Sequence record: PP488543.1
Strand: one strand, 5' to 3'
DNA: 64,000 nt
Source of the DNA: Escherichia phage BP9
The notes beneath the pieces were generated by a model. It did not search any database. It saw nothing but the letters and a program-made list of their open reading frames with translations, and was not told where the DNA came from. This document shows positions 4,527-64,000 of this stretch, in pieces (position 1 is the first letter of the stretch; every line of letters starts with the position of its first letter). A program made the translations under genes and the position numbers.

Positions 4527-5411
4527 ATGCCAAGCAATATAGTTGATGAAAAAGACCTGTACAAGCCTCAAGAGGTTAAATCTCCAAAGGCTGAAAAGGC
4601 AGAGCAGCAAACTGAAAGCGATGTAAAGTACACTATGTTTGTCAGCGGTCTTAACTATGGTGGTCGCAATACGGAGATGAAGGGTAAAAACTTTACTAAC
4701 GATCTTGCCATTATCTTCGACCAGGTTGAGAACTATTCTTTCAAACATTCTGTTGATAAGACTGATTTTGCAGTGGAAGATAAATCTACCCTGTCAGACC
4801 ACGCTGTAATTAAAGATGGTGTATTTTCTTTTACTGGTAGGGTAAATACATCACCACATATAATCTATGAGCAAAACTACATTGACAGGAATACTGACTC
4901 TAAAAACCCTGCAGCATCTATGCGACCGGGCGCTGCACTGGAGGCTTTGACTGAAATCATTAATAAGCGCCAATTGGTTTCTTTGGTTACCGAGGAAAGA
5001 CTCCTTGAGAACTACATTATAACCAGCCTTTCTGCCAGCAAGTCTGTTGGCGAAGGTGCTGCAATGGTTTTTGATGTAGAGCTTACAGAGTTCCGCACAT
5101 TCTACTTGAACAAGGTTGTTAATGCAACTGTATACAGCAATCCTAAGAAAGTAGGCAAGACCCAACAAAAAGGTGCTGTCAACGACTGTAAGAATGGTAG
5201 TAACGTAGGTAACAAGAGGGACACAGGAGCATTCGCAGACACTGCATCCACAAACGCTGCAGAGGAGTGGCAGCCATACAAATCTATGATGTGGACAGAT
5301 GAAAACGGTGTTACCCAATCGGCTGCGGATTGGTATTATCAGGAATATGGAAGACCTTCTACCATAGTCCCATCTGAGCAGGGAAACTACAACAAAGTTA
5401 ACGGGAAATAA
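4527..5411 (+). CDS. tail/baseplate assembly protein of unknown function (post-tape-measure gene)
   Basis: ATG at 4527 has a GGAGAGG Shine-Dalgarno; the track start at 4500 overlaps the promoter -10 and is unlikely. Occupies the position of LysM/DNA-circulation-type proteins in contractile-tail operons; no motif recognised. Confidence 0.35.
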   Translation: MPSNIVDEKDLYKPQEVKSPKAEKAEQQTESDVKYTMFVSGLNYGGRNTEMKGKNFTNDLAIIFDQVENYSFKHSVDKTDFAVEDKSTLSDHAVIKDGVFSFTGRVNTSPHIIYEQNYIDRNTDSKNPAASMRPGAALEALTEIINKRQLVSLVTEERLLENYIITSLSASKSVGEGAAMVFDVELTEFRTFYLNKVVNATVYSNPKKVGKTQQKGAVNDCKNGSNVGNKRDTGAFADTASTNAAEEWQPYKSMMWTDENGVTQSAADWYYQEYGRPSTIVPSEQGNYNKVNGK

Positions 5412-49838: not shown

Positions 49839-50738
49839 ATGATTTTCATCTACGAACATTTCAAAACCCGTAAAGAAGCAAGAGACCGCCGTGCAGAACT
49901 TGAGAAGAAGGGTTTCATATGTGCCATTGAGAAAGGCGACACAACCTGGACACTGGCAGTTGGTGCCCCAGAGTTGTTCGATCCTGACCGTGACAGCGTC
50001 TGCTACACCCGTGAAGATTTTGAAACCCGCGAAGAGGCCCGTTTATTTCGATACGGTCTGGAAGATAACGGTAAGTACGCCATGATCTTAGATTTAGGCG
50101 AAGGGTCCGTTAAACGTTGGGGCGTGGTATACCCACTGTGTGTTGTTCATGGTGTGGGGTTCACTGGGGTAGCAATCAAGTCAGAAGAACCTTTAGTAGA
50201 AGTCAAAGATCCGGTGCTGGAGGTGGTGAGCAGTGTATCTCAGCAACAGACTCGAAGTATTGAGCCTTTGGTAGTTATTTGTGGGGAACTCCTCCAGATC
50301 ACCTGCAACGAAGGCATTTTTGAAATTCGCCGCAGTGAAAGTGAGGAAGTTTACCAGAAAGTCTTCGACCATATCTCTGTCCAGAAATATGACGAGGCAA
50401 TTGGTGAAATCCTTGTCTGGTTGGAACGCAAGAATGAGTTCACTACACTTGCAGACAACCTGATCATGAAAGATGGTAAGCTCTACTACTACGGTGTAGA
50501 GATGCGATCCACCATTGCAAAGAAAATTGAGAAAGATTATGCAGACGGAACACTAGATGACCGCTATGTGAAATTCCTAGTTCGCCTGCTACGCAATCCT
50601 TCTGCAAAATCTGTAAACATGCTCTACGATTTTATGCAGGCCAACGATATCCAGCTTGCAGAAGATGGTCGAATCATTTGCTACAAAGGAGTTCATTTTC
50701 CATCGTTTTTTTGCCGAGCAGGAGCTGGAGTTCTTTAA
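49839..50738 (+). CDS. hypothetical protein with two N-terminal repeats; 3' end replaced by IS2 sequence (possible rIIB-like partner, unverified)
   Basis: Repeats [19 protein letters not shown] / [18 protein letters not shown]; the last ~17 codons are encoded by IS2-derived DNA (IS2 homology begins at about 50688), so the native C-terminus is lost. Confidence 0.4.
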
Positions 50739-50976
50739 TCTGCTTCATGGCAGCAGCAAGTTCAGAGGCAGGAACGACCTGTTCTCCTGCGGCCACAGCA
50801 GTAAGACTTCCCTCCTGGTATTGCTTGCGCCAGAGAAATAACTGGCTGGCTGCCACACCGTGTTGCCGGGCAACAAGGGAGACCGTCATTCCCGGTTCAA
50901 AGCTCTGCTGAACAATAGCGATCTTTTCCTGTGTAGTACGCCGTCTGCGTTTCTCCGGTCCTAAGACATCAATCAT
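50674..50976 (-). pseudogene. insC: truncated IS2 insC (orfA) reading out of the IS fragment into phage DNA
   Basis: InsC N-terminal ~96 aa are intact, then the frame runs across the junction at about 50688 and terminates at 50674. Confidence 0.8.
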
Positions 50977-51067
50977 CTGCTCTCCAATGACTAGTCTAAA
51001 AACTAGTATTAAGACTATCACTTATTTAAGTGATATTGGTTGTCTGGAGATTCAGGGGGCCAGTCTA
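50688..51067 (-). mobile_element. IS2 fragment (left inverted repeat plus 5' part of insC/orfA), truncated internally
   Basis: Reverse complement matches the IS2 left end TAGACTGGCCCCCTGAATCTCCAGACAACCAATATCACTTAAATAAGTGATAG... and the start of InsC ([84 protein letters not shown]..); only ~380 bp of the 1.3-kb element is present. Confidence 0.9.
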
Positions 51068-52261: not shown

Positions 52262-52880
52262 ACAATTCCAGCGAGCTGCTGGTATTAGAGAGGCGCTGGC
52301 CGCTCGCTGGTTCTCGCATATAACTTCTGCGATGAAAGAGTTTGGTATCAGCAAAGCAGAGGATCAGGCAATGTTTATTGCTCAGGTCGGGCATGAATCT
52401 GTGGGCTTCACCAGATTGCAGGAGAATTTCAACTACAGTGTCAGCGGTCTGGCTAACTTCGTTCGGGCTGGGCGTCTCACTCAGGGGCAGGCTAATGCAC
52501 TGGGTCGCCGTGCTGGTGAACCACCATTGCCACTCGAGCGCCAGCGAGCGATCGCCAATCTGGTGTACAGCAAACGCATGGGGAACAATTCCCCTGGTGA
52601 CGGCTGGAATTACCGAGGCCGTGGACTTATCCAGATTACCGGTTTGAATAACTATCGTGACTGCGGAAACGGCCTGAAAGTGGACCTGCTGGAGAATCCT
52701 GAACTGTTAGCGCAGGACGAATATGCGGCTCGTAGCGCGGCGTGGTTCTTCTCCAGCAAAGGTTGCATGAAGTATACCGGCGATATTGCACGTGTAACTT
52801 TGATTATCAATGGTGGCAGGAACGGCATCGACGACCGGAGAGCGCGGTACATCACTGCCAGTAAGGTGCTGGCGGTATGA
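52251..52880 (+). CDS. endolysin, glycoside hydrolase family 19 (chitinase-like lysozyme)
   Basis: GH19 signatures ([12 protein letters not shown] ... [16 protein letters not shown]) in a lysis-cassette context. Confidence 0.8.
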
Positions 52881-53359
52881 TCTGGGCATTCGTAAAAGCA
52901 TACTGGAAACAGTTGCTTATCGTGGCGGTGCTTGCTGTTCTGGTCATATCAGGGGTTGTTGCCTGGAATGTACACGGTAGTCGTCAGTACGACGCCGGGT
53001 ATGCACAGGCGAAAGAAGACCGCAAAACCGAAGATGAGAGAGTTCGTCAGCACTACGAACAGGAGAAATCGATCAATGAACGTGAAGCGCAGCAGAGGAT
53101 CGACCAGGCGCGCAATGATGCTCTTGATGCTGCCGCTCGCGCTGGCCGGTTGCAGCAACAGCTCGTTGCCATCCGTGAGCAGCTCAGGCAGTATAACGCC
53201 ATTGTCGGCGCTGGGACGTCAGCCGCAGACACCGGAGTTTTGCTTGCCGACGTGCTCAGTAAATCTCTCGAGAGAAACAGACAACTGGCAGAGTATGCTG
53301 ACCGGGCAGCCGAAGCCGGAAGAGTCTGTGAAAAACAGTACGACACCCTGACCAGATAG
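52877..53359 (+). CDS. Rz: i-spanin (Rz-like)
   Basis: N-terminal transmembrane segment ([18 protein letters not shown]) followed by coiled-coil periplasmic domain; contains an embedded lipoprotein gene in another frame. Confidence 0.65.
53076..53351 (+). CDS. Rz1: o-spanin (Rz1-like outer-membrane lipoprotein) embedded within Rz
   Basis: ATG at 53076 preceded by AGGAGAAATCGATCA; lipobox LALAGC ([30 protein letters not shown]), Pro-rich mature part; entirely inside the Rz gene in a different frame. Confidence 0.7.
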   Translation: MNVKRSRGSTRRAMMLLMLPLALAGCSNSSLPSVSSSGSITPLSALGRQPQTPEFCLPTCSVNLSRETDNWQSMLTGQPKPEESVKNSTTP

Positions 53360-53532
53360 CATGGCATTTTTCATGGTACTGATTTCCGGTGACGGTATAT
53401 AAAACGGTACGGTAAAAATTGAGATTTGGAAAAATGTTATCACTCAATTGGTTATGGTATCCGTAAATAATTGAGTGGGAATGATTAACAGCTAACTCAT
53501 AGCAAATCATTCCTATTCAGATGCTAACTCAA

Positions 53533-53566
53533 CCCTCTGTTTTTGCAGAGGGTTTTTGTTTTTATG
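53533..53566 (+). terminator. rho-independent terminator downstream of the lysis cassette
   Basis: ccctctg-tttttg-cagaggg hairpin followed by tttttgtttttat. Confidence 0.6.
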
Positions 53567-53676
53567 TATTCATTTCTATTCACTCTACACCATATTTTTC
53601 GGCGGTACAGGTGACGGTATTACCTTAAAGGTATACTCTCATACCGTCATGAAAATGGTTTCTATATGGGTGAATT

Positions 53677-54933
53677 GTGCTTACCGATACAAAATTAAAA
53701 AACCTCAAGCCGCAGGACAAACTGTACAAGGTCTCCGACCGTGACGGGCTGTATGTAGCTGTGCTTACGTCAGGCACGGTCTCGTTTCGCTATGACTACC
53801 GTATCAACGGTCGCCGCGAAACACTGGTAATCGGGCAGTATGGGCGTGACGGTATCAGCCTGGCAGAAGCGCGAGAAGAACTGATTGCTGCAAAGAAGCT
53901 GCTTAAAGCAGGCCAGTCACCGGCTGCGGCTAAACGTGACGGTATCAAAAAGATTCGTGGTGCCGAGACGTTTGCGGTACATACCGACAGTTATATGAAA
54001 CACGTCATCCTGGCTGACAGTACCCGCGCAATGAAGCAGGCGGTGATCGACCGTGACATACTTCCGGTTCTTGGCAACAAAATGATGGCTGAAATTACCA
54101 CATCGATGGTTCGTGATTTGTGTGACCGGATTGTCGAACGCGGTGGTCGGGCAACAGCAGTACAGGCCAGGGAGATCATCAGCAGCGTATACCGTCACGC
54201 CAATGACCGTGGTCATGGTTTGTTTAATCCTGCGGCTGACATTAAACCTTCGTCTATCGCCATATTTAAACCACGAGAGCGAACACTGACACCAGAAGAA
54301 ATTGGCCTGTTCTTCCGCACGCTGGATGCCATTGGTGCTATGGGCACTATGAAAATGGCTTTAAAGCTGGTGCTTATCACTATGGTTCGTAAAGGCGAAT
54401 TCACCAATGCAACGTGGGATGAAATAGATTTTAAAAAATGGACATGGACAATTCCTTCAGACCGCATGAAGGGAAGCCGGGCGCACGTTATTTACCTGCC
54501 TAAACAGGCACAGGATATATTGGTTGGGTTGCAGATGTGCGCTGGTGGAAGTGAATATCTGGTTCCTGGTCGTTACAATTTCCGGAAGCCATTATCTAAT
54601 GCCGCGCTGAACTCTCTGATCGACAGAACGGTGAAAATAATAAATGAAGATGGTGAGCATATTCAGGGCTTCACCGTACACGATATGCGCCGTACAGCCA
54701 GTACGTTGTTGCATGAGGCTGGTTATCCTTCAGACTGGATTGAAAAGGCGCTGGCACATGAGCAGAAAGGTGTGCGCGCCGTATATAACAAAGCGGAATA
54801 CGCCAGACAGCGCGCCTGGATGTTGCAGCAGTGGGCCGATATGATTGATTCCTGGATTAACGGGGAGCATACGGATCTGATTCCGTTCTCCCCGTCGAAG
54901 TTTGAGAGGTGGATGGAAGACAGTAATAAATAA
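53677..54933 (+). CDS. int: tyrosine integrase, P4-like family
   Basis: N-terminus MLTDTKLKNLKPQDKLYKVSDRDGLYVAVLTSGTVSFRYDYRINGRRETLVIGQYG is the classic P4-type integrase arm-binding domain; the C-terminal catalytic region contains HDMRRT and a tyrosine near the end (RAVYNKAEY). Confidence 0.9.
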   Translation: MLTDTKLKNLKPQDKLYKVSDRDGLYVAVLTSGTVSFRYDYRINGRRETLVIGQYGRDGISLAEAREELIAAKKLLKAGQSPAAAKRDGIKKIRGAETFAVHTDSYMKHVILADSTRAMKQAVIDRDILPVLGNKMMAEITTSMVRDLCDRIVERGGRATAVQAREIISSVYRHANDRGHGLFNPAADIKPSSIAIFKPRERTLTPEEIGLFFRTLDAIGAMGTMKMALKLVLITMVRKGEFTNATWDEIDFKKWTWTIPSDRMKGSRAHVIYLPKQAQDILVGLQMCAGGSEYLVPGRYNFRKPLSNAALNSLIDRTVKIINEDGEHIQGFTVHDMRRTASTLLHEAGYPSDWIEKALAHEQKGVRAVYNKAEYARQRAWMLQQWADMIDSWINGEHTDLIPFSPSKFERWMEDSNK

Positions 54934-54935
54934 TT

Positions 54936-55595
54936 CTATCCTTCCTGGACTTTGGTAAGCGTCAGATTTCCGCAGAACACTGCGCCGGTGTCGATGTACA
55001 TCTGGTTTGCATACACCAGTGGGTGATGTGCTGGCGTATGACCGAAGATGAACAAATCGGCACCGGTTATCTCCGAGACAATACCGTCCTGCGCGTCGCT
55101 AACCCGCTCACGATTCCATATCACCATTTCTTCTGGTACTGGCTTATCGAATGCGTATTCGTTGTGCGGGTAGTCTGCGTGACAGATGACGACCTTCTTA
55201 TTGCCGGTAACCAGTTCGATAATCATCGGGAGGTTGGTAATCTTTGGCAGAAGGTATTTGAGTTGCACATCCTGCTCAGAATCAAGTTGGTGCCACCATC
55301 CACCGCCGTTTGACATCCAATGTCCGAAACTTCCGCCGTTGACCAGTGCATCCAGCATCATCTGCTCATGGTTGCCACGAACAGCTCGGAACCACGGCAT
55401 AGTAATCAAATCCAGGCATTCGACGTTTTCAGCGCCGCGGTCAACAAGGTCACCAACGGAAATAAGTAAATCGCGCGCCGGGTCGAATGAAACTTTGTCG
55501 AGTTCGTTCATCAGCAGCGTGTAGCACCCATGCAGATCGCCGACGACGAAGATATTGCACCAGTCAGCACCATTGATGCGTTGATATAGGTTCAT
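54936..55595 (-). CDS. Ser/Thr protein phosphatase (lambda NinI / PP-lambda-like metallophosphatase)
   Basis: Metallophosphatase motifs GDLHGC, GDLVDRG, GNHE. The probable start is the internal Met ([12 protein letters not shown]) at about 55595, giving ~219 aa and a 4-bp overlap with the upstream gene; the track ORF extends to 55715. Confidence 0.85.
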
Positions 55596-56242
55596 GCTGC
55601 ACGCTCCCGCCCCTGGTTGTCTATTGGTGACACCGGAGCATTGCTGAATGCATTTGTTAATCCGCCAATATCCAACGCGTATCCAGGGTGTAGTTGCACT
55701 ACCGGGTCTTCGCACTGATTACCCCAAACATCGAAGCCATGAGACGTCTGGCGGGCGAACAGTTCAATGCGAGAAACATCGCCTAACAATTGCACAAGTT
55801 TTTCACGAACGACATCTGGTTTTCTTGAATGCTCAAGCCGCGGTGCGGTAAATGCCTGAACGATCCCTGCATTAATGCGTGGAGGTAGTTTTCCCTTTAC
55901 TGCAAACAGGCAATCTTCACTATTGGCGCGAGTCATGTGTCCCATACCCATAACCAGTTTATCTGGTTGTCGACTACCACATTTTATCCACGTGAAGCCC
56001 TTCATCGTCATCAGACGAAATCCCCAGGCTTCAACAACTTTTAGTGCTTCGAGTGGTTGTGTTGGCACCCACCACATGGCCAACAGACAGTTTTCATCGG
56101 CCAAATCCCACACAGGAAGGCGGCAGATATCCAGCACACTCATAACCGGATATTTAAAACCGGCACCGCGATTACCATCTGCGGCTTTGTCCCGGTATAC
56201 CCAGGGTGGATCTGCATAGATTAGCGTGTATTTCTTAGTCAT
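55592..56242 (-). CDS. MT-A70 family N6-adenine DNA methyltransferase (orphan, no cognate nuclease seen)
   Basis: Catalytic DPPW motif ([10 protein letters not shown]) and the MT-A70 fold pattern. Confidence 0.8.
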
Positions 56243-56534
56243 AAACCACCCCGCAACATCCTATGCCGCTATAGTCGCCACGGCGAAGGCCGTTACCTTT
56301 TGTGATACATTGGTCCCTGCGAACCGCGATCCTTGCACGCTCAACATCACCAGAAGCAACATCCATACACTTAAGCCAAAGGTGAGCGGCAATGCGGAAC
56401 TGTCCTTTTTTCTCTCTTTCAATTGCGCGTTTTTCGAACTCTATCGCCGCAGGAGTAACGGCGACAATCTTTGACGGACTGCGCATTGAAACCTTGTTCA
56501 TGTGATATTTTTCAAGTCGGCTTAACTTTCTCAC
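56235..56534 (-). CDS. hypothetical early protein (99 aa)
   Basis: ORF in the leftward early operon overlapping the methyltransferase start; no family recognised. Confidence 0.35.
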   Translation of the reverse strand: MRKLSRLEKYHMNKVSMRSPSKIVAVTPAAIEFEKRAIEREKKGQFRIAAHLWLKCMDVASGDVERARIAVRRDQCITKGNGLRRGDYSGIGCCGVVYD

Positions 56535-56643
56535 TTAATCCAACCCTCTCTGAAAATTAATGCCAGCAGATAAAGCCATGCTGAAACAGAGGCCAGGAAT
56601 AAGTACCATCCTGACCATTTGCTCCAGTGCCTTAGCAGCACAC

Positions 56644-56892
56644 TCATGCAGCGTTGCTCACAGGACGATATACACGTTGCTGAACAGGAGGCTTTTTACC
56701 CTGGAACTCTGCCGGGCTTGCTGCCTGACGTTCATCAAGCCAACGCTCAACTTCATCACGGTTCCATGCGCAGCGTTTGTCAGTGATATACCAGCGTTTA
56801 GGAAATTCCCCTGCGCGCTCCATGCGGTCGATAGTGCTCCATGACAGTGGCACCACCGCCAGGAGTTCCTTCTTACCTAATGCACCTTTCAT
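56644..56892 (-). CDS. AlpA-family transcriptional regulator / putative excisionase
   Basis: MerR-like helix-turn-helix (..ELLAVVPLSWSTIDRMERAGEFPKRWYITDKRCAWNRDEVERWL) typical of AlpA/Xis proteins that accompany P4-type integrases. Confidence 0.6.
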   Translation of the reverse strand: MKGALGKKELLAVVPLSWSTIDRMERAGEFPKRWYITDKRCAWNRDEVERWLDERQAASPAEFQGKKPPVQQRVYRPVSNAA

Positions 56893-56941
56893 AAATACCT
56901 CTCTTGGTTGCAGTGCGGCGCGCGTGGCGCCGCGGTGGTGG

Positions 56942-57910
56942 TTACATAGATGTTTCGTTTAATTCTTCCCGACGAACGCTGTAAACGTCGGTGGCTTTTG
57001 CCAGCAGTTCGTCATCATCTGAAAGTTTTTGTGCAATGTATTTGTAAGCTTTATCCAGTTCGGAGACAGTGCTGTAATTCATCGCTGCGCTGGTAAAGGC
57101 CATCAGCATTTCTTCTGGATCACGGCTATCCGCTTTACGCGTTTGCTCATCAGGCTTTTTCACTTGTTTAGCGTTGATCAGACTGTTCATTCCCGCAGCA
57201 GTGGTCGTTTGCGGAGTAATGTCTCGCTCAACGCGCGGTGCCGTTTCCTGTAATTCGTCTGGTGTGTAGACGCCCATGATTACGTCAGGACAGTGCAAGC
57301 GAGACCAGCGTTTTGTCGCAAGGTATGCGAGTTGTTGTTTCGGATCACTGGCCCAAAGTGTGGAGTTTCTTACCTGTGCTTGAGATAGCATTAACTCAAG
57401 CACTCGAGGTTGATCCTCGCCCTTCATGGTTGCCCATACGCGAACACCGCAGCCTTCTTCGTCTTTTAGAGTCCAGCCTGGTGCAATATATGGATTGCCG
57501 TTTTTGGATGTTTTCTCAACAAACTTACCGATCACGCGTTCCCACGGCCCGAACCACTCGTAGTTGATGCGATCTTTTGTTGGCGACATCGTTGAGATAA
57601 CTGCGTTTACTAATTGGGCTTCATAACCTAGCGTGCCGTTCACAACATGGGTTTTCTGAGCCACGGCAAACGGGTTCATTCCCCACTGCGCAGCCTGCAT
57701 TGCCACGGCCATGCAATCAGCTGGTTTCCCGGCGAGGTGCGCCGGTACCGTTACGCGGCTTTGCGCCATTACCTCGGCGAATTTCATCAGTTGGTTCAAG
57801 CCGTCTGGGCTGAAAATAGTTGCAGCAGTTCCAGCGATTGCTGTGTCTACTGGTGCGTTGATGTTTGCGATGTCGTTGCTCATATGTACATATCCTGTTT
57901 GCGTGCCCAC
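56942..57910 (-). CDS. RecT/Red-beta-family single-strand annealing protein
   Basis: Domain order and conserved C-terminal block (QQLAYLATKRWSRLHCPDVIMGVYTPDELQE) resemble RecT; overlaps the upstream exonuclease gene as in recET/red operons; probable ATG start at about 57883. Confidence 0.55.
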   Translation of the reverse strand: MGTQTGYVHMSNDIANINAPVDTAIAGTAATIFSPDGLNQLMKFAEVMAQSRVTVPAHLAGKPADCMAVAMQAAQWGMNPFAVAQKTHVVNGTLGYEAQLVNAVISTMSPTKDRINYEWFGPWERVIGKFVEKTSKNGNPYIAPGWTLKDEEGCGVRVWATMKGEDQPRVLELMLSQAQVRNSTLWASDPKQQLAYLATKRWSRLHCPDVIMGVYTPDELQETAPRVERDITPQTTTAAGMNSLINAKQVKKPDEQTRKADSRDPEEMLMAFTSAAMNYSTVSELDKAYKYIAQKLSDDDELLAKATDVYSVRREELNETSM

Positions 57911-58701
57911 TCAGGGCGTTTAATGATTTCCACACCGCCCCATTCATCATTGATGCGGCATTCGTGATAGGTATTCAGATCCCGGCGGAACAGAGCGTGC
58001 CCGGCATCGACATCCTGCGCATCCAGCTCGAACACGCGTACCGGATACCGACCACAATCAATGCTTTCGCTCACGGCAAGAAAGAAAAAACCATGCGGCT
58101 GACCAGTAACCCTCATTGCGCCTTCGCGGTACATTGCGTCCTGCACGTGGTAGCGGAATTCCTCGATGTGGCGTGCAAAACGGTCCATATCTGCAACCTT
58201 TTTCACGTCGACGATCACGTTGTGCTCGTTCAGCCATTTGTCTGGACGAATTCGGCACAACTCACCCGTCTCTTCATCGTTCCAGTACATTGACGCTTCG
58301 CAGTAACCAGGTGCTTCCAACATCCAGCGTGCAGCCGGGTGAGCCATTGTGCTATCACGCATCAGCTCCAGTTTTCGCCACTGCTCGACATCAAGTACCG
58401 TAATACCCATATCCGCCACATCACGAAGAAATGCTTCTTCGTCAGCTTTACCTTGTTTTGTCCGACGATCGAATTTCGGTGAAACGATGAAGCGTTTGTC
58501 GAATTCTCCAGGTTCCAGAAGCAGACAGTGCAATGCGGTTCCCATATCCAGTGCAGACTTTTTCTCTTCGTCTTCTGGTGCTGCCTGAACCCATTTAAGA
58601 AGCGCCGGATTCTTGGCAACCATGTCAAGTTGCGACTTACTCACGCCGTCACCGGCGTGGTAGTCTTCGTTGCTGATGCCGAAATAAATTCCCGGTTTCA
58701 T
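57880..58701 (-). CDS. PD-(D/E)XK-family phage exonuclease (YqaJ/RecE-like recombination exonuclease)
   Basis: Catalytic motif arrangement (..CRIRPDKW..VIVDVKKV..) and genomic pairing with a RecT-like gene. Confidence 0.55.
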   Translation of the reverse strand: MKPGIYFGISNEDYHAGDGVSKSQLDMVAKNPALLKWVQAAPEDEEKKSALDMGTALHCLLLEPGEFDKRFIVSPKFDRRTKQGKADEEAFLRDVADMGITVLDVEQWRKLELMRDSTMAHPAARWMLEAPGYCEASMYWNDEETGELCRIRPDKWLNEHNVIVDVKKVADMDRFARHIEEFRYHVQDAMYREGAMRVTGQPHGFFFLAVSESIDCGRYPVRVFELDAQDVDAGHALFRRDLNTYHECRINDEWGGVEIIKRPEWARKQDMYI

Positions 58702-59012
58702 GCCGCGTCCTTCTGTCCATCAAGCTGATCCGCCAGATCCCAGCGGGCGATAATTGCCATTGCCTCTCGCCGGTAGGCATCCATTAGTTCTTCGAACTCA
58801 GGGCTGTCTTTAGCGGCCTCCAGCACTTCCTGACGAACGCCTTTGCCTGTTACAACGTCAAAAGTTGAGGCCAGTTGATGAAGCCGGATACTCTCAATCA
58901 GTTCGACTTGTCGGTCATATAGCTGTTCTGACAGGCGGTAGTCCTTGTCGAATGCCAGCATGATTTTTTGAAGATTTTTCTGCTGATTAACGTTCATTAT
59001 CAGCCCTCCCAT
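58698..59012 (-). CDS. hypothetical early protein (104 aa)
   Basis: ORF in the leftward early operon, at the position held by gam/kil-type genes in lambda; no motif recognised. Confidence 0.35.
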   Translation of the reverse strand: MGGLIMNVNQQKNLQKIMLAFDKDYRLSEQLYDRQVELIESIRLHQLASTFDVVTGKGVRQEVLEAAKDSPEFEELMDAYRREAMAIIARWDLADQLDGQKDAA

Positions 59013-59171
59013 ATCTCGTTATCGTTGGCCACATCGCGAGCTTCTTTGCTGACGAAAGCCCACTTAATGCCTTCCTGTAAGGTGCGGAACTTCCAGCTCA
59101 TGAATCCGCATGCAGTAACGCAGTACCAACCGTTGATGATTTTCCACTGCATAACTTGTTACCTCGGTCTG

Positions 59172-59186
59172 TTACCGTTGAGGTAA
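59172..59186. promoter_or_regulatory. operator half-site pair TTACC-N5-GGTAA (leftward early promoter region)
   Basis: TTACCgttgaGGTAA; an extra TTACC half-site lies 9 bp upstream. Confidence 0.5.
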
Positions 59187-59232
59187 TGATTATGCGTATT
59201 TGGTTTGGTGTCAATAGATATGAGTTAAAAAA

Positions 59233-59249
59233 ATTACCCTTAAGGTAAT
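59233..59249. promoter_or_regulatory. 17-bp operator ATTACC-N5-GGTAAT (leftward early promoter region)
   Basis: ATTACCcttaaGGTAAT, perfect inverted half-sites, located between the repressor terminator and the leftward early genes. Confidence 0.6.
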
Positions 59250-59260
59250 TGTGTAGACAA

Positions 59261-59283
59261 TAAAAAAGCCGCCAGAAGGCGGC
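59261..59283 (-). terminator. rho-independent terminator of the repressor gene
   Basis: On the minus strand gccgcc-ttct-ggcggc followed by a U-run (the plus strand shows AAAAAA then gccgcc-agaa-ggcggc), 20-45 bp downstream of the repressor stop. Confidence 0.7.
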
Positions 59284-59305
59284 TTACTTACTGAAAAATA
59301 TGATT

Positions 59306-59890
59306 TTATTGTTTGTTTTTTTCGTTCTGGTTGATGACAAATTCAATGTAACTTTCGATCTTTGCTTTCTCGGTTTCGGGTAACAATGCGTAGCGCGAGC
59401 GGTCATAGTTGATGGTCGCAGGGTCGTGCGGGTGAATCAGTAATTCATAGCCGTGACGCCCGAATGCGGATGCAACATTCTCCAGGGTGGAAATGGAAAC
59501 GCTGACCTCATTGTTTAACAGGCGGCTGATTGTCACCTGGGCGACGCCGGATGCGCGGTGAAGTTTTCCCTGTGTTGAAAGGTCGCGGCTTTCGCTCATC
59601 CAGCGTTCCAGGTTGTGAGCCGCCAGCTGACCAATGTCGCTTGGGCCGACAGGCTGAAAACCTTCCTGAGAAAGCGAGCGATCGATATCAAGCCAGTTAC
59701 GGGGTTTATTGGCGGCAGCTTCAATTTTTCGCGCAACCTGGTCGCCGATAACCTTCTTGCCAAGAGCCCAGCGGTTTACCAGATTTGCCTGAGTTCCAAG
59801 TTTTTCTGCCATCCGCGTCTGAACACCATTGAATTCACGGTCGATCAAGTCGTTGAGATTTTGCCTGCGGACGTCCTGGATACTTTTCAT
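59306..59890 (-). CDS. CI-like repressor with helix-turn-helix domain(s) and no recognisable LexA/S24 peptidase domain
   Basis: Divergent from a cro-like gene; helix-turn-helix segment QTRMAEKLGTQANLVNRWALGKKVIGDQVARKI and a second HTH-like segment ASGVAQVTISRLLNNEVSVSISTLENVASAF; operators on both sides. Confidence 0.6.
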   Translation of the reverse strand: MKSIQDVRRQNLNDLIDREFNGVQTRMAEKLGTQANLVNRWALGKKVIGDQVARKIEAAANKPRNWLDIDRSLSQEGFQPVGPSDIGQLAAHNLERWMSESRDLSTQGKLHRASGVAQVTISRLLNNEVSVSISTLENVASAFGRHGYELLIHPHDPATINYDRSRYALLPETEKAKIESYIEFVINQNEKNKQ

Positions 59891-59944
59891 TTTCTGGAAA
59901 ATCGCCTCGTATATGAATCAGTAGATGATTCAATTTAAAGCAAT

Positions 59945-59961
59945 ATTACCCAACAGGTAAA
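59945..59961. promoter_or_regulatory. 17-bp operator ATTACC-N5-GGTAAA in the divergent repressor/cro control region
   Basis: ATTACCcaacaGGTAAA, 55 bp from the repressor start. Confidence 0.6.
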
Positions 59962-59990
59962 TGCACCCCATAGGTAACTATCCTTGATTT

Positions 59991-60019
59991 TTGTTACCTT
60001 ATGGGTGAATATTTATTAT
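59991..60019 (+). promoter_or_regulatory. putative rightward early promoter (TTGTTA-17 bp-TATTAT) with overlapping operator TTACC-N5-GGTGA
   Basis: -35 at 59991-59996, -10 at 60014-60019; the imperfect operator at 59994-60008 lies in the spacer; cro-like ATG at 60045. Confidence 0.45.
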
Positions 60020-60044
60020 CTGAAATAAATATCAGGCAATAGCT

Positions 60045-60275
60045 ATGAGCGATAACGGACATTTCGATTTCAAAAAGCACTGGCTTGCACTTACTCCGGA
60101 TGAGCGTGAAGCCTTCGCACAGGAAGCCGGAACGACGAGTCACTATATCCAGACTCACTTAACAGGTAAGCGCAAAATGCCAGGTAAAGTATTGATGAAT
60201 GGGCTTTTTAAAGCCTGTAAAACAAGACAATGGCTGCGCTCAAAAGCAGAACTGGCATACTTCTTCTACTCATGA
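60045..60275 (+). CDS. Cro-like / YdaS-like small DNA-binding regulator (76 aa)
   Basis: Small basic protein transcribed divergently from the repressor, in the canonical cro position. Confidence 0.5.
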   Translation: MSDNGHFDFKKHWLALTPDEREAFAQEAGTTSHYIQTHLTGKRKMPGKVLMNGLFKACKTRQWLRSKAELAYFFYS

Positions 60276-60425
60276 TATCCAGCCACAACCCTCTGTAGAC
60301 CGCCACCCGGCGGTCTTTTCATATCTATTCGCACCTCAAAGGTAATAAAAAACCAAATCTGGTTGATCTTTTTTTTGTGTCAGCACAAAATGACCGTAAT
60401 CCCAATACTAATAACAGGGCTTACC

Positions 60426-60626
60426 ATGGAAATCATTACACGTATTGATGCCGCAAAGCGCGGACTTAAACGCTACTACACCGGAAAACCATGTAAGCAC
60501 GGACATGACAGTGAACGTTGGGTTTACAACGGACACTGTGTTGAGTGCACCATGGAATCAAACCGTCGCATCAGGGCTGAGATTAAGCAGATCATGATTA
60601 ATTCCTCCCCACAACATTCAAGCTGA
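60426..60626 (+). CDS. small zinc-binding protein in the cII position (about 66 aa from the internal ATG)
   Basis: CKHGHDSERWVYNGHCVEC Cys/His cluster; the track ORF starts at 60363 but its N-terminus is hydrophobic junk-like, so the internal Met is preferred. Confidence 0.4.
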   Translation: MEIITRIDAAKRGLKRYYTGKPCKHGHDSERWVYNGHCVECTMESNRRIRAEIKQIMINSSPQHSS

Positions 60627-60641
60627 TAGCGGAGATTAATC

Positions 60642-61433
60642 ATGAGCAGACATGCAACAGATTGGGCCTGGGAGACAGATCCAGGTAGCTCATCATTAAA
60701 GCTCATACTGCTCTCGATGGCTGACAGAGCCGATGAATATAACCTCTGCTACCCCAGCATAGAACGCCTCGTTAAAGACACTTGCCTGAATAAAAAAACC
60801 GTGCAGGCCGGGCTTATATCGCTCATGAAAATGGGGCTTATTTCAGATACCGGAGAGAGAAAGGGAGCGACAAAAAGAGTGCGGGTTTTCTCTCTTAATA
60901 TAACCAAAAACGGGAACATTAAAGGCAACCGGGAGGGGGGCAATGAACCCGAAAACGGTAATGTTACCGAAAACGGGAATATACCCAAAAACGGGATGTT
61001 GAATGATCCCAAAAACGGGATCCAGAACCAGTCATATAACCAGTCATTTAACCAAGAGAGGGAGAGCAGGACAAAAAACGGGGATTCTGTGCCTCATGAC
61101 CCCGACGCAAACAACGCCGTGATGAATAACTTTGTTCCTCCTGGTGGGCCAGGGCAATTAGGCAAATTTGTCATGCATGAACAATGGCAGCCATCAGATG
61201 ACTTTCTTCGGAAAAGCTCATTGCAGGGGATCTACCTGGACAGTCTGCCAACGGCACAGGAACTTGCAGAGTTCAGAATTTACTGGATGGCTGAGGGTAA
61301 GGCATACCATCAGGCACAGTGGGAGCAGAAGCTGGCAAGGCGGCTGCAGATTAGCAGACAGAAGCAATCAACATTACCTGATAACAACGTTCCGCACTGG
61401 AACAGCCCTGAAGCATGGGAGGATTTCTTGTGA
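60642..61433 (+). CDS. replication initiator / replisome organiser (lambda O-like) containing the putative origin
   Basis: N-terminal winged-helix pattern like lambda O; six AAAACGG(G/T)AA iterons lie inside the gene; directly followed by a lambda P homologue. Confidence 0.65.
   Translation: MSRHATDWAWETDPGSSSLKLILLSMADRADEYNLCYPSIERLVKDTCLNKKTVQAGLISLMKMGLISDTGERKGATKRVRVFSLNITKNGNIKGNREGGNEPENGNVTENGNIPKNGMLNDPKNGIQNQSYNQSFNQERESRTKNGDSVPHDPDANNAVMNNFVPPGGPGQLGKFVMHEQWQPSDDFLRKSSLQGIYLDSLPTAQELAEFRIYWMAEGKAYHQAQWEQKLARRLQISRQKQSTLPDNNVPHWNSPEAWEDFL
60906..61088. repeat. iteron array (six copies of about cc.aAAAACGG(G/T)AA), candidate origin of replication
   Basis: Copies begin near 60906, 60951, 60968, 60986, 61011 and 61073, inside the O-like gene, followed by an A/T-richer stretch with ccagtcat repeats. 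Confidence 0.6.
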
Positions 61434-62215
61434 ACAACGTTTTTACCGCGATACAAAACCGTGACGGAGAAGCCCTTTCTCGCATGTCAGGTTATGAGCA
61501 TCAGTACGTCAACAATGACAATGTGGTGAACATGTCAGCAGAGAGGCTTGTTGATGCCCTTTTTAAACAGCTGAAACAACTGTTTCCGGCGGCAGTGGTA
61601 ACCAACCTGAAGACGCCAGAGCAGGAAGTTGCTGCAAAACAGCAGTGGATTGCTGCGTTTGCCGAAGGGGGGATCCGAACCCGTGAACAGGTTTCTGCTG
61701 GTATGCGCCACGCCCGCGCCAGTGAATCTCCGTTCTGGCCGTCTCCAGGGCAATTTATCAAGTGGTGCAAAGACAGCAAGATGGTTCTTGGCGTCACCAT
61801 TGACGATGTGATGGCGGAGTTTCACCGGTACAGCAAGGAAAAAAGTTTATATCCTGGTGGTCCCGAAAGATTCCCGTGGCGACATCCGGTTATGTACTGG
61901 GTCGTATGTGATACCCGCCGCGCAATGTATCAGCGCCAGCTTAGCGAGATTGAGGTTGAGAAACACGCACGCAGGCTGCTCGATGATTGGGCGAAAAAGG
62001 TGGCTTCCGGACAGCAGATACCCGATCCGGTGATCAGCATACAGGCAAAGCCAGAACCCATGAGTACGCCTCCGGACACAGGGAGAGACGTTTACCATCC
62101 ACCAGGGCGAAGTTTCGGGTGCATGCCTAACGCCGCCACCCTTGGGGGAATAACACCGGCGCAGTGGCTGATGGAGGAATACAGGCGGGGAAAGGCGGCA
62201 GGATTTATCAAGTAA
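61415..62215 (+). CDS. P: replication protein P homologue (DnaB helicase loader)
   Basis: Strong similarity to lambda P: AAFAEGGIRTREQVSAGMRHARASESPFWPSPGQFIKWCKD versus lambda LAFRENGITTMEQVNAGMRVARRQNRPFLPSPGQFVAWCREE. Confidence 0.85.
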   Translation: MGGFLVNNVFTAIQNRDGEALSRMSGYEHQYVNNDNVVNMSAERLVDALFKQLKQLFPAAVVTNLKTPEQEVAAKQQWIAAFAEGGIRTREQVSAGMRHARASESPFWPSPGQFIKWCKDSKMVLGVTIDDVMAEFHRYSKEKSLYPGGPERFPWRHPVMYWVVCDTRRAMYQRQLSEIEVEKHARRLLDDWAKKVASGQQIPDPVISIQAKPEPMSTPPDTGRDVYHPPGRSFGCMPNAATLGGITPAQWLMEEYRRGKAAGFIK

Positions 62216-62220
62216 TACCA

Positions 62221-62240
62221 GCGCGATAGCGCATTTTTTT
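62221..62240 (+). terminator. rho-independent terminator after the P-like gene
   Basis: gcgc-gata-gcgc hairpin followed by attttttt, beginning 6 bp after the P stop. Confidence 0.5.
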
Positions 62241-62245
62241 ACGTC

Positions 62246-62274
62246 TTGATAATTACCTGTTGGGTAATAAAATA
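62246..62274 (+). promoter_or_regulatory. repressor-gated promoter: TTGATA -35, 17-bp operator ATTACCtgttgGGTAAT as the spacer, AAAATA -10
   Basis: The 17-bp palindromic operator (62252-62268) exactly fills the spacer between the -35 (62246-62251) and -10 (62269-62274) hexamers. Confidence 0.55.
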
Positions 62275-62313
62275 TTCTAAAATCTATTGATTTCGTGTCT
62301 TATGTGGTTTTTA

Positions 62314-62330
62314 ATTACCTTAGAGGTAAA
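62314..62330. promoter_or_regulatory. second operator ATTACC-N5-GGTAAA overlapping the Shine-Dalgarno of the 62333 gene
   Basis: ATTACCttagaGGTAAA ends 2 bp before the ATG at 62333; the GAGG ribosome-binding site is inside the operator. Confidence 0.55.
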
Positions 62331-62332
62331 TC

Positions 62333-62680
62333 ATGAGAAAACAGATACAGGCTCTTGGTCGACTCAAAACAGGCCAGATGAACAAAACAGAATCTGCGTA
62401 TTGCCAGCACCTTGAGCAGCGTAAACGTGCAGGGGAAATCGCCTGGTATCGATTCGAGGGTATTAAGCTGCGGTTAGCTGACAACACGTTCTATACGCCC
62501 GATTTCGCTGTGATGCTCGCCACCGGAGAGATGGAACTGCACGAAGTGAAAGGGGGATTCTGGACCGACGACGCCAGGGTGAAAACCAAAGTAGCCGCAG
62601 ATCAGTATCCGTTCCGAATCATCGGGGTAACGGTTAAACCAAAGAAAGCAGGTGGCGGCTGGAACATCGAAGAGTTCTGA
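62333..62680 (+). CDS. DUF1064-like PD-(D/E)XK nuclease-fold protein (115 aa)
   Basis: Pattern ..MNKTESAYCQHLEQRKRAGEIAWYRFE..L.LA..TFYTPDFAV....ELHEVKGG....AR.KTKVAADQYP matches the DUF1064 layout with a PD..E.K core. Confidence 0.5.
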   Translation: MRKQIQALGRLKTGQMNKTESAYCQHLEQRKRAGEIAWYRFEGIKLRLADNTFYTPDFAVMLATGEMELHEVKGGFWTDDARVKTKVAADQYPFRIIGVTVKPKKAGGGWNIEEF

Positions 62681-62741
62681 ATCGACGATCTTTTTAGTTA
62701 TCAATGTAATCAATAAGTTATGTGGATAAGCGAGGGTAAAG

Positions 62742-63278
62742 ATGGAAAGTAATATCAAAGGGTTAGTTTCCGCCGGGCATGAGATGGCTTCGGAACTGAA
62801 AGCTGAATGTGGTGCCGTTGATATGCGTAGTGTGGCAAAGCTGCTCAGCGATTTGGCAACGCAACTGGAAGTGCAACTGGTGCGTGCTAATGCGCTGGCA
62901 GCGGAGAGTGCGGGGCTGAAGTCTGCGCACCCTCAACCATTCGGACATGAGATGATGAAGGCTCTTGATGCGTATGAGAAGCATCAGGATGAAGTGCCAG
63001 AGACTGGAATGCTCAATGCATTTTTCATCTTGCGCGACAGCATCCGTGTTGACACCCCAGCCACCGACGCTTTCCTGGCTGAAGTACGGGCGCAGGGCGT
63101 GGATGCTGCTATAGAAGCTGCAAAAAATCTGGTGGCCCAAGAATATGAGTATAAGGATTTCAAAGCGGCGCAGAGTGATTGCTGTATGCACCCTGGTTCA
63201 GACCTGGTAGGGAAGGTTGAAATGACTGAGTGGTTAGTTGACTTTGCTGCCCAGCTTCGCAAAGGAGGCAACCAGTGA
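62742..63278 (+). CDS. hypothetical protein (178 aa)
   Basis: ORF in the rightward operon; 4-bp overlap with the downstream gene. Confidence 0.4.
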   Translation: MESNIKGLVSAGHEMASELKAECGAVDMRSVAKLLSDLATQLEVQLVRANALAAESAGLKSAHPQPFGHEMMKALDAYEKHQDEVPETGMLNAFFILRDSIRVDTPATDAFLAEVRAQGVDAAIEAAKNLVAQEYEYKDFKAAQSDCCMHPGSDLVGKVEMTEWLVDFAAQLRKGGNQ

Positions 63279-63826
63279 GCGAAATTAATTACCAGGCACT
63301 GCGTGAGGCGGCGGAACGTGCAATTCCAGCAATGGAACGCCTGTTAATGTTGCCAGCTGATGATGATTTGTTAAGTGAACAGGAACTTAAAGATTACGGT
63401 GTGGATATTGATGCGCTCAACGCCTTCAAATTTCTGGCCGGACCAGAAACCGTGCTGGCACTACTGGATGAACGGGAAAGGAACCAGCAATACATCAAAT
63501 CCCGCGACCAGGAGAACGAGGATATTGCGCTAACGGTAGGGAAGTTGCGCGTTGAGCTGGAAGCAGCAAAATCAAAACTCAACGAGCAGCGTGAGTATTA
63601 CGAAGGTGTTATCTCTGATGGGAGTAAGCGCATAGCAGAGTTAGAAAGTGGTTCTCAGGCACAAAAGTTAGTTGAAGCAATCATTGTTGCGATAGAAAAC
63701 GAACAGGAACGTCTTTTTGATGAAGATTACCTAATGGATTCGAAAGAATGCATTGACGTAATTCGTGAAGAAGTAAAGCGATGGGATGATTCCCGCGCCG
63801 CTGGCATTGGCATCAAAGGAGAGTGA
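63275..63826 (+). CDS. ead/Ea22-like coiled-coil protein (183 aa)
   Basis: N-terminus MSEINYQALREAAERA resembles the Ea22-family start as I recall it; acidic coiled-coil rest. Confidence 0.4.
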   Translation: MSEINYQALREAAERAIPAMERLLMLPADDDLLSEQELKDYGVDIDALNAFKFLAGPETVLALLDERERNQQYIKSRDQENEDIALTVGKLRVELEAAKSKLNEQREYYEGVISDGSKRIAELESGSQAQKLVEAIIVAIENEQERLFDEDYLMDSKECIDVIREEVKRWDDSRAAGIGIKGE

Positions 63827-63828
63827 TA

Positions 63829-64000
63829 TGGCAACTTTGACAAAAAAAGAACAAGCATGGTTGAGCGAATTACAGGACGTTCTTGATCGCTGCCCATCAC
63901 CGAAAAAAATTGGTTTTTACACCATTGGCGATAAAAGCATTTACCTGTATGACCTGCGCCGCATGGATGAAATCATGGAGGCTCTTGATAATCGTTCGTC
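63829..64000 (+). CDS. hypothetical protein, 3'-truncated at window end
   Basis: ATG at 63829 (MATLTKKEQAWLSELQDVLDRCPSPKK...) with the frame open to the window edge. Confidence 0.35.

Follow-up and report, generated by a model that had tools for sequence, protein, structure and literature searches.

The analysed window, 64,000 nucleotides of Escherichia phage BP9 (PP488543.1), contains a repressor gene, rep, which is divergent from a cro-like gene and surrounded by predicted promoters, terminators and copies of an inverted repeat, (A)TTACC-N5-GGTAA(T). This switch region is 98% identical at the nucleotide level to phiV10 (genus Uetakevirus), where the counterpart of Rep is PhiV10p40, and to vB_EcoP_ZX5, and the gene order int - methylase - PerC - AlpA - recT - exo - rep / cro-like - dnaT-like - P - resolvase is that of Uetakevirus. 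The window is collinear with phiV10 at 96-98% identity from 52431 to 62921, the phiV10-like DNA extending only from the holin through the early-right genes. This DNA is flanked by Vequintavirus DNA within the window, whereas the complete prophage of E. coli AR_0086, which is integrated at guaA and has an early region 99.5% identical, lies between host genes, so the window is not that prophage. Phage PH444 matches the window at only 93-97% identity and only from 51575 onward. Prophages of the phiV10 type are common in E. coli (561 of 5,426 complete genomes). The features, with operator names as predicted here, are:

53620-53634, no strand: int-proximal site TTACCTTAAAGGTAT, 1 mismatch, role uncertain
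59172-59186, no strand: O_L proximal operator TTACCGTTGAGGTAA, sharing 1 base with the -10 and lying over the predicted start site
59186-59214, minus: P_L promoter, TTGACA (59214-59209), 17 nt, AATCAT (59191-59186)
59233-59249, no strand: O_L distal operator ATTACCCTTAAGGTAAT, exact motif, 19 nt upstream of the P_L -35
59266-59285, minus: rep intrinsic terminator between rep and P_L, 8-bp stem with 6 GC pairs and a T-run, annotated in phiV10
59306-59890, minus: rep, encoding the prophage repressor (194 aa; domains for DNA binding, dimerisation and tetramerisation/Ant binding; no S24 peptidase)
59946-59960, no strand: O_R site a, rep-proximal, exact motif
59963-59977, no strand: O_R site b GCACCCCATAGGTAA, left half degenerate, centre 17 bp from site a
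59994-60008, no strand: O_R site c TTACCTTATGGGTGA, 1 mismatch, within the P_R spacer, centre 31 bp from site b
59984-60019, plus: P_R region, -35 TTGATT (59984-59989), -10 near 60007-60012
60045-60275, plus: Cro-like 76-aa HTH protein (phrog_35 'transcriptional repressor', E 5.6e-13)
60297-60316, plus: intrinsic terminator after the cro-like gene, from the scan and phiV10
60331-60345, no strand: half-degenerate site GCACCTCAAAGGTAA, preceding a 66-aa gene and the replication genes (dnaT-like, P)
62221-62240, plus: putative terminator after the P gene, a short GC hairpin with T7, annotated in phiV10
62253-62267, no strand: P_res distal operator, exact motif, half-sites invariant
62287-62315, plus: P_res promoter, TTGATT (62287-62292), 17 nt, TTTAAT (62310-62315)
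62315-62329, no strand: P_res proximal operator, exact motif, running over the end of the -10 and the GAGG ribosome-binding sequence of the gene that follows
62333-62680, plus: DUF1064 / Holliday-junction-resolvase-like gene, first of the P_res unit (Pfam DUF1064; phrog_190, E 1e-43)

Predicted promoters and the sites around them

P_L, with 10/12 matches in the promoter scan, falls in the leftward early promoter region to which the initial annotation had assigned the motif, the proximal site abutting its -10 and spanning the start, and the centres of the proximal and distal sites are 62 bp apart. Both GTCAATAG at P_L and the half-sites of the distal operator, a 17-mer palindrome without mismatch, are invariant across seven phages, whilst the spacer of the distal operator occurs in 14 variants among 80 loci with an identical Rep. 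The pair described far downstream (62252-62268 and 62314-62330) was recovered as exact matches at 62253-62267 and 62315-62329, also with centres 62 bp apart, and is here reinterpreted as a second copy of the P_L arrangement. Judged from the sequence, one cassette is present twice, as P_L and as P_res (the latter ahead of the DUF1064 resolvase-like gene), in ungapped register with 52/92 positions identical and with the same order of distal operator, 19 nt, TATTGA (-35), 17 nt, -10, and proximal operator across the start site. At P_res the TATTGA is invariant in seven phages, as is the T7 of the 62221-62240 hairpin, a putative terminator not called by the scan because its stem is only 4 bp, and the distal operator has about 20 spacer variants (80 IMG/VR loci). 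The promoter reported by the scan at 62246-62273 (TTGATA-16-TAAAAT) was set aside in favour of the P_L-like TTGATT-17-TTTAAT because its -35 is not conserved.

Both sites originally placed between the divergent CI-like and Cro-like genes are real, but there are three sites rather than two. Site a lies within ATTACCCAACAGGTAAA (59945-59961), is identical in 80/80 IMG/VR loci and has half-sites invariant in eight phages. Site b came from a scan allowing 2 mismatches; its ACC...GGTAA is invariant in eight phages, with a full TTACC in ε15 and SPC32H. Site c, starting at 59994, lies inside the P_R spacer, as had been proposed for a putative promoter here. The P_R given above, whose TTG at 59984-59986 is invariant in eight phages, was chosen by eye over the promoter-scan alternative TTGTTA (59991-59996), 17 nt, TATTAT (60014-60019). 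No placement was found for P_RM, the rep promoter, the best by-eye candidate reaching only 8/12.

Site b and the site at 60331-60345 are conserved half-degenerate copies absent from the initial annotation. The latter lies downstream of the terminator of the cro-like gene and occurs as GTACC, ATACC or TTACC variants in phiV10, Tyrion, two further relatives (L090 and L092) and the 80 IMG/VR loci; we infer that it is a putative operator. The degenerate copy said to adjoin int was located 43 nt ahead of the GTG of int (53677). This copy is also found in phiV10, SPC32H and the AR_0086 prophage, and in ε15 with a different spacer; it sits within a larger inverted repeat annotated with RNase III and Int sites in the ε15 record, and a search for a sigma-70 promoter at the site found none.

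Enrichment and conservation of the motif

A scan of the whole 64-kb window, a check of the kind proposed in the initial annotation, returned five exact matches to TTACC-N5-GGTAA against 0.05 expected, an enrichment of about 100-fold over chance, all of them inside 59172-62329, and 0/100 shuffles gave five exact matches. With up to one mismatch there were 11 matches against 1.6 expected. The four core sites (59172-59186, 59233-59249, 59945-59961 and 59994-60008) all stand at the coordinates first given for them, and degenerate copies start at 59994, 59963, 60331 and 53620. Further one-mismatch matches at 4831, 23623, 36438 and 51686 fall in unrelated coding or foreign DNA and were taken as chance.

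The motif recurs at matching positions in phiV10, Tyrion, ε15 and SPC32H and in four genomic relatives, one of them a Serratia phage, with both half-sites 100% conserved in 44/44 sites and the spacers free. Across eight diverged relatives (Rep 42-78% identical) the positions of the sites and their half-sites are likewise conserved, whilst the 5-bp spacer varies; the invariant blocks of the alignment are the half-sites and the -35 boxes. The 80 IMG/VR loci encode identical repressors only and so measure population variation rather than Rep diversity, and among them diversity was 0.0009 in half-sites, 0.075 in spacers and 0.022 at other intergenic positions. The operators overlap predicted promoters, and the promoter scan and the eight relatives agree with the earlier claim that the sites lie on promoters and recur at the same positions.

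These observations bear on whether the repeats could instead have a structural role, as hairpins, terminators or RNase III sites, or be palindromes that arose by chance. A 5-bp hairpin is possible at each site, and the int-proximal copy is labelled an RNase III site in the ε15 record. However, the enrichment is far above chance, the 5-bp stems, being AT-rich, lack the strength of a terminator, real terminators adjoin the sites, and the sites occupy -35, -10 and +1 positions on both strands; moreover, the arms are invariant and the loop variable without compensatory changes in the arms, which indicates a sequence-specific rather than a structure-specific constraint. We therefore consider this explanation extremely improbable, and the ATTACC-N5-GGTAAT sites are almost certainly, on the evidence of their sequence and arrangement, operators of the prophage repressor Rep.

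A different reader of the same sites is conceivable, the Cro-like protein (60045-60275) being their primary ligand and Rep recognising something else or a subset. This protein has an HTH and its phrog_35 match (with no Pfam or PDB sequence match), and it is better conserved than Rep (76% identity to ε15 gp39, with an invariant AGTT..YI motif, against 42% for Rep to ε15), parallel to the invariant half-sites, and might itself be what keeps the sites constant. In the Serratia relative, however, the Cro-like HTH is altered (TTAKYIMAHTQR against TTSHYIQTHLTG, 53% identity), yet Rep keeps its N36, R40 and W41 and the operators keep their TTACC/GGTAA half-sites. In the ε15 record the sites are credited to the repressor, and SPC32H Rep is reported, in the summaries of that work, to bind palindromic sites. 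Priority of the Cro-like protein is thus improbable; in lambdoid switches both proteins share operators, so the idea is more a complement to Rep binding than a rival of it.

The repressor and its probable route of inactivation

Rep matches SPC32H Rep over its full length (5D50_A, E 4e-42, aa 1-190 against 2-197; phmmer, PDB), and the three-domain SPC32H structure covers all 194 residues. In that protein an N-terminal DNA-binding, a middle dimerisation and a C-terminal tetramerisation/Ant-binding domain follow one another, and residues F187 and F190 are the C-terminal aromatic residues of tetramerisation, as outlined in PMC9986798; an alignment count found Tyr or Phe at both of these positions in 8/8 Reps. 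The predicted recognition helix (aa 35-42, ANLVNRWA, with N36, R40 and W41 invariant) is unchanged across Reps 42-78% identical. The HTH segments claimed for Rep held in part: the N-terminal HTH corresponds to the DNA-binding domain, but the second (Pfam HTH_3, aa 106-147) lies in the dimerisation domain. ZX5, phiV10 and others reportedly share one repressor sequence, which corresponds to that of the window, and its over-expression in ZX5 demonstrated repressor function, lowering lysis-gene transcription by >99.9% (PMC9782041).

Pfam found only HTH and no S24 peptidase in Rep, the AF2 model is all-helical with 5D50/5D4Z as top Foldseek matches, and the fold search returned 5D50/5D4Z and HTH_3-type domains only, with no LexA/CI C-terminal domain among the matches; the absence of an S24 domain noted from the sequence is hence confirmed. 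For the idea that Rep, like λ CI, cleaves itself under RecA stimulation by means of a cryptic module, nothing was found in favour apart from general lambdoid repressor precedent, and the 194 residues are already accounted for by the SPC32H structure. SPC32H Rep, in work attributed to Kim and Ryu in 2013, is reportedly not cleaved. Review passages describe SPC32H induction as Ant-mediated, and self-cleavage is very unlikely. SPC32H Rep binds palindromic sites as a tetramer that tetrameric Ant disassembles, as summarised in PMC9638917 and in PMC9986798 (citing Kim 2016), and the full-length homology makes it probable by analogy that the antirepressor route originally suggested, rather than RecA-stimulated autocleavage, applies here.

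Homologues of SPC32H Ant and phiV10 gp24 were sought in the window by tblastn and none was found, nor was one of Bro-N (gp23) in the 64 kb; the LexA box CTGT-N8-ACAG gave two matches, a number not above chance, and both fall in the foreign left part. The window lacks ant because it is a chimera, and since it has neither ant nor a good LexA box, the induction route must be deduced from relatives. The AR_0086 prophage carries an 85-aa Ant that is 89% identical to SPC32H Ant (PDB 5D50_E, E 2.5e-47), its gene preceded by a perfect LexA box, CTGTATATTTATACAG, in the same arrangement as in SPC32H; a search for a sigma-70 promoter in the ant/tail-fibre intergenic region of this prophage (L007) found none.

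Induction might alternatively proceed through the Bro-N/KilAC 'antirepressor' (phiV10 gp23; ZX5 ORF4) instead of the small SPC32H-type Ant. Over-expression of Bro-N in ZX5 lowered prophage numbers and rep transcription (PMC9782041), and the AR_0086 prophage has a Rep-type site at L007 37608 upstream of a PGAP 'phage antirepressor Ant' gene (L007 36680-37336), taken to be of the Bro-N type from the position of phiV10 gp23. The effect in ZX5 is mild, however, and with its gene behind a Rep operator Bro-N would have to await derepression before being expressed; the small Ant alone combines a perfect LexA box with a solved structure in complex with the homologous Rep. We consider the Bro-N route unlikely and retain the small Ant as the probable inducer.

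Overall, the region very probably confers immunity in a temperate phage of the phiV10 kind (ε15 family, Uetakevirus), with (A)TTACC-N5-GGTAA(T) as the Rep operators and with induction expected by the Ant route. The paired N-terminal HTH domains of Rep would bind each palindrome, the middle and C-terminal domains holding the protein as dimer and tetramer. At P_L and P_res the two operators bracket the predicted -35 and -10, so that one Rep tetramer could clamp each promoter. The three O_R sites would span P_R and the region upstream of rep, and the Cro-like protein may compete with Rep for them. Following SPC32H, DNA damage would cause LexA to leave the ant promoter, and the Ant then made would bind Rep and remove it from DNA.

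Known systems and wider implications

The switch is already known as one of the phiV10/ε15/SPC32H type. The ε15 record (NC_004775.2) gives ATTACC-N5-GGTAAT the label 'protein_bind, repressor, lysogeny' at the counterparts of 59172, 59234 and 62253, its RefSeq 'protein_bind: repressor' sites lying at P_L, the resolvase, terS, the head operon and the tail fibre; the O_R sites and the promoter-proximal resolvase site are unannotated there, and ε15 spacers are A/T-rich. The phiV10 record and the ZX5 paper define no operators, and the latter tested the Bro-N protein, not the small Ant. SPC32H Rep-Ant (PDB 5D4Z, 5D50) is of the same genus, its Rep homologous end to end with the same three-domain layout, and its genome has the same TTACC-N5-GGTAA sites and spacings at P_L, at O_R and ahead of the resolvase gene. 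In contrast to the window, P_L carries three sites rather than two in SPC32H and ε15, spaced by 76 and 62 bp, and the middle O_R site of these phages is a full palindrome rather than half-degenerate; SPC32H Rep is only about 42% identical to that of the window, which, unlike SPC32H, lacks ant.

As in λ CI/Cro, divergent repressor and cro genes flank a tripartite O_R, a terminator and then O_L/P_L come after rep, palindromic operators overlap promoters, and repression may be cooperative or looped. Unlike λ, Rep has no S24 domain or RecA cleavage but a p53-like C-terminal tetramerisation domain, the half-site spacer is not conserved, and further Rep-controlled promoters follow terminators with no antiterminator evident. 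The repressors and antirepressors of Gifsy/Fels-2 and 186 are unrelated proteins to those of the SPC32H type. Their logic of a non-cleavable repressor and a LexA-controlled antirepressor (Tum in 186) is the same, as sketched in PMC3121763.

Three further proposals hang together, and jointly we hold them tentatively, as somewhat likelier to fail than to stand. The 62-bp geometry could mirror, on the DNA, the unusual 'trans' Rep tetramer, with one micro-loop per promoter, although copying of the cassette alone may explain the conserved spacing without any need for a tetramer; Rep could also directly gate all phage transcription units, early and late, without an antiterminator, and single in-spacer operators were predicted by eye at other promoters of the complete relatives. 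The hypervariable 5-bp spacer would tune operator affinity. Lastly, with half-sites and recognition helix invariant from Salmonella to Serratia phages, and Ant 89% against Rep 42% identical, ε15-like phages would, if this is true, share immunity and induce one another even across different hosts.

As a discovery the switch carries little weight. The family of the repressor, the motif of its operators and inactivation through an antirepressor are all on record for ε15 and SPC32H. The practical use lies in a map of operators and promoters in the phiV10 lineage, comprising the tripartite O_R, the twin 62-bp cassettes and the extra site before the replication genes, which can guide footprinting, tests of the SPC32H-type tetramer on DNA and the prediction of cross-immunity among ε15-like prophages.

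Probable operator sites of the immunity region

Over 58900-60700, the immunity region matches phiV10-type phages (phiV10 and relatives; genus Uetakevirus, ε15 family) at 98% identity, and amongst 5,426 complete E. coli genomes 561 contain this stretch. Leftward genes are int, an MT-A70 methylase, PerC-like, AlpA-like, RecT, a PD-(D/E)XK exonuclease, two small ORFs and rep, encoding the repressor Rep, whilst the rightward genes are Cro-like, a 66-aa gene, DnaT-like, λ-P-like and DUF1064 resolvase-like. On inspection of 58800-60500, all four core sites listed in the initial annotation were present, and the two distant sites that it reported downstream are exact motif copies. A scan allowing two mismatches added two unlisted sites, both kept in relatives.

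Operators, promoters and terminators in the window (P_L, leftward early promoter; P_res, promoter before the resolvase-like gene)
59172-59186, core site, TTACCGTTGAGGTAA
59214-59209 and 59191-59186, minus strand, P_L, TTGACA, 17 nt, AATCAT (promoter scan)
59233-59249, core site, perfect 17-bp palindrome, ATTACCCTTAAGGTAAT
59285-59266, rep terminator, directly ahead of the P_L cassette
59945-59961, core site, ATTACCCAACAGGTAAA
59963-59977, extra site, GCACCCCATAGGTAA
59994-60008, core site, TTACCTTATGGGTGA
60331-60345, extra site, GCACCTCAAAGGTAA
62221-62240, short GC hairpin plus T7 after the P gene (the phiV10 record annotates a terminator)
62253-62267, P_res distal operator, then 19 nt to TTGATT
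62287-62292 and 62310-62315, plus strand, P_res, TTGATT, 17 nt, TTTAAT
62315-62329, P_res proximal operator, also spanning the GAGG ribosome-binding site of the DUF1064 gene

The repeats might in principle be RNA hairpins or chance matches. This reading is excluded by their enrichment, TTACC-N5-GGTAA matching five times over 64 kb where 0.05 matches are expected (at most once in every shuffled sequence) and 11 times against 1.6 with one mismatch allowed, and by arms that are constrained sequence-specifically, without compensatory changes. In the ε15 RefSeq record, features labelled 'protein_bind, repressor, lysogeny' are already present: three lie at P_L, one ahead of the resolvase gene and a single one ahead of each of terS, the head operon and the tail-fibre gene; the four whose sequence was read (those at P_L and before the resolvase gene) are ATTACC-N5-GGTAAT. 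A motif scan found copies at equivalent positions in phiV10, Enterobacter phage Tyrion, ε15, Salmonella phage SPC32H and four more relatives from a protein search, which include Raoultella and Serratia prophages (Rep 54-65% identical). Amongst 44 exact sites from eight phages, in which the ten half-site positions are invariant by construction, the five spacer positions showed no preference except A/T richness, and position -1/+16 was A/T in about 60%. In the P_L, O_R (sites between rep and the cro-like gene) and P_res alignments the invariant blocks are the half-sites, -35 boxes and T-run, and the rest drifts. Across 80 IMG/VR loci with identical Rep, per-column diversity rose from 0.0009 in half-sites through 0.011 in rep and 0.022 in the remaining intergenic positions to 0.075 in spacers, with 14 variants of the distal P_L spacer (59239-59243). 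Together, these sequence comparisons support the repeated sites as operators of the ε15-family repressor. The 5-bp spacers at 59239-59243 and 62258-62262 were variation hot spots, with 14 to about 20 variants in the same 80 loci.

The degenerate site reported next to int was located at 53620-53634. This site, TTACCTTAAAGGTAT, lies within a larger inverted repeat, GACGGTAT...ATACCGTC (53613-53648), in which no sigma-70 promoter was detected; both are retained in ε15, where the spacer differs and the record labels the stretch as RNase III and Int sites. A minus-strand 259-aa ORF (54936-55715) located between int and the methylase is Ser/Thr phosphatase-like, with metallophosphoesterase motifs GDLHG and GNHE recognized by eye. 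A small DUF1382 gene occupies its place in phiV10 and in the prophage of E. coli AR_0086, and identity to both is interrupted between 54916 and 55590. The window is a chimera in which phiV10-like DNA begins only at ~51484 and part of the DNA to its left matches Vequintavirus; an artefact of assembly or construction is the probable cause. Vequintavirus comprises rV5-like, strictly lytic, 137-kb myoviruses; identity is ~95% over the tested stretch, 27000-50700, and the match stops within rIIB. An IS2 insC fragment (381 bp) occupies 50687-51067, and the phiV10-like genes run as on a phage map (lysis, attP, int) rather than as in a prophage.

Promoter cassettes and rightward units

At P_L, the first base of the proximal operator is the last base of the -10 element, and this operator spans the predicted start site; on the upstream side, 19 nt separate the -35 element from the distal operator, and the two operator centres are 62 bp apart. 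The cassette is repeated on the plus strand as P_res, after the P gene and hairpin, the two aligning without gaps (52/92 identical), and each of the four elements is in register. The spacing is 62 bp in 7/8 phages at P_L and 6/8 at P_res, the Serratia relative, and phiV10 at P_res, falling outside the alignments. Since both cassettes copy one design, this spacing may be set either by how the promoter is laid out or by how far a Rep tetramer reaches. A scan-called alternative P_res (TTGATA-16-TAAAAT) was rejected, its -35 being unconserved in contrast to the invariant TATTGA. A leftward promoter-like match between the P_res operators (62274-62301, minus strand, AAGACA-16-TAGAAT by scan) is probably due to chance.

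O_R comprises three sites, centred at 59953, 59970 and 60001, at intervals of 17 and 31 bp (in ε15, 17 and 30 bp), with ACC...GGT invariant in 8/8 phages. Site a is the closest to rep, and site c lies within the spacer of the rightward promoter whichever assignment of it is taken; no convincing position was found for the rep promoter (P_RM). The half-degenerate site at 60331 follows the terminator of the cro-like gene (60297-60316) and precedes the replication genes. Given the terminators and sites between them, every rightward unit is therefore terminator-bounded with its own Rep-type site; no antiterminator was evident.

Repressor architecture and the Cro-like protein

Rep is the 194-aa product of 59306-59890 (minus strand). 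The initial annotation saw no S24 peptidase domain in it, and Pfam likewise returned helix-turn-helix (HTH) matches only. Residues 1-190 align with SPC32H Rep (E 4e-42; PDB 5D50, the complex of Rep with the small antirepressor Ant), of which PDB 5D4Z covers residues 92-198. An AlphaFold2 model (21 homologues as input; mean pLDDT 73.5) was helical throughout, with a helical block at 4-59, a disordered linker at 65-82, a second helical block at 82-151 and a tail at 164-193, and Foldseek against PDB retrieved 5D50/5D4Z, then generic HTH_3 domains and nothing else. Within the limits of sequence and fold comparison, cryptic self-cleavage is excluded. PMC9986798 describes SPC32H Rep as having N-terminal DNA-binding, middle dimerisation and C-terminal tetramerisation and Ant-binding domains, a layout by which the Pfam HTH_3 match (aa 106-147) falls in the dimerisation domain rather than the DNA reader. 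Within the predicted recognition helix (aa 35-42, ANLVNRWA), N36, R40 and W41 are shared by 21/21 homologues, a constancy that fits the unchanged half-site.

The Cro-like protein (60045-60275) might instead be the main binder, being an HTH protein (phrog_35 match; no match amongst Pfam and PDB sequences) and far better conserved to ε15 than Rep (76% vs 42%). Its HTH is nevertheless altered in the Serratia relative, where the sites and Rep helix are unchanged, and it is more likely that the two proteins share the sites.

Antirepressor, late-gene sites and the ε15/SPC32H family

The initial annotation suggested that, with no S24 domain, induction may depend on an antirepressor; we judge this correct, but it is already a published property of the SPC32H/ε15 Rep family. 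PMC9986798 and PMC9638917 describe a Rep tetramer on palindromic sites that tetrameric Ant disassembles. Neither an Ant homologue nor a credible LexA box was found in the window, because the phage is only partly present there. The complete prophage at guaA of E. coli AR_0086 (99.5% identical to window 55590-64000) encodes, divergently from the tail-fibre gene, an 85-aa protein (L007 37654-37949) 89% identical to SPC32H Ant (PDB 5D50_E, E 2.5e-47). A perfect LexA box, CTGTATATTTATACAG, lies upstream, as does CTGTATAAACATACAG at the same position in SPC32H (L004 19676-19973). Kim and Ryu (2013) reportedly placed ant under LexA control, with Rep not cleaved.

Rep-type sites also occur in the AR_0086 prophage, near the terS start, ahead of both the head operon and an annotated 'antirepressor Ant' gene, and in the spacer between ant and the tail-fibre gene. 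Across complete relatives, the same operator stands ahead of terS, the head operon, the tail-fibre gene, the annotated 'antirepressor Ant' gene and another leftward gene.

Operator sites in complete relatives
AR_0086 prophage (L007): 15774, 18919, 36593, 37608, 37989
SPC32H (L004): 12, 3175, 20013

Judged from these positions, Rep seems to exert direct control over both early and late units. The annotated 'antirepressor Ant' is presumably of the Bro-N type (phiV10 gp23); the Bro-N protein was weighed as the true inducer, but may rather be a secondary amplifier, because its gene is behind a Rep site.

The phiV10/ZX5 repressor has been tested previously: one sequence is reported to be common to ZX5, phiV10 and others, and its over-expression in ZX5 lowered endolysin and holin transcription by >99.9% (PMC9782041). 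The observation is confirmed and its interpretation supported, and the immunity system belongs to the described, already known ε15/SPC32H Rep-operator-Ant family. To this we add, as features that we infer and for which no description was found in the accessible literature, the division of O_R into three sites, the duplication of the 62-bp cassette, the site that precedes the replication genes, the hypervariability of the spacers and the contrast in conservation between AR_0086 and SPC32H, where Ant is 89% identical and Rep only 42%, which suggests that the Ant-binding surface is conserved and that cross-induction may occur.
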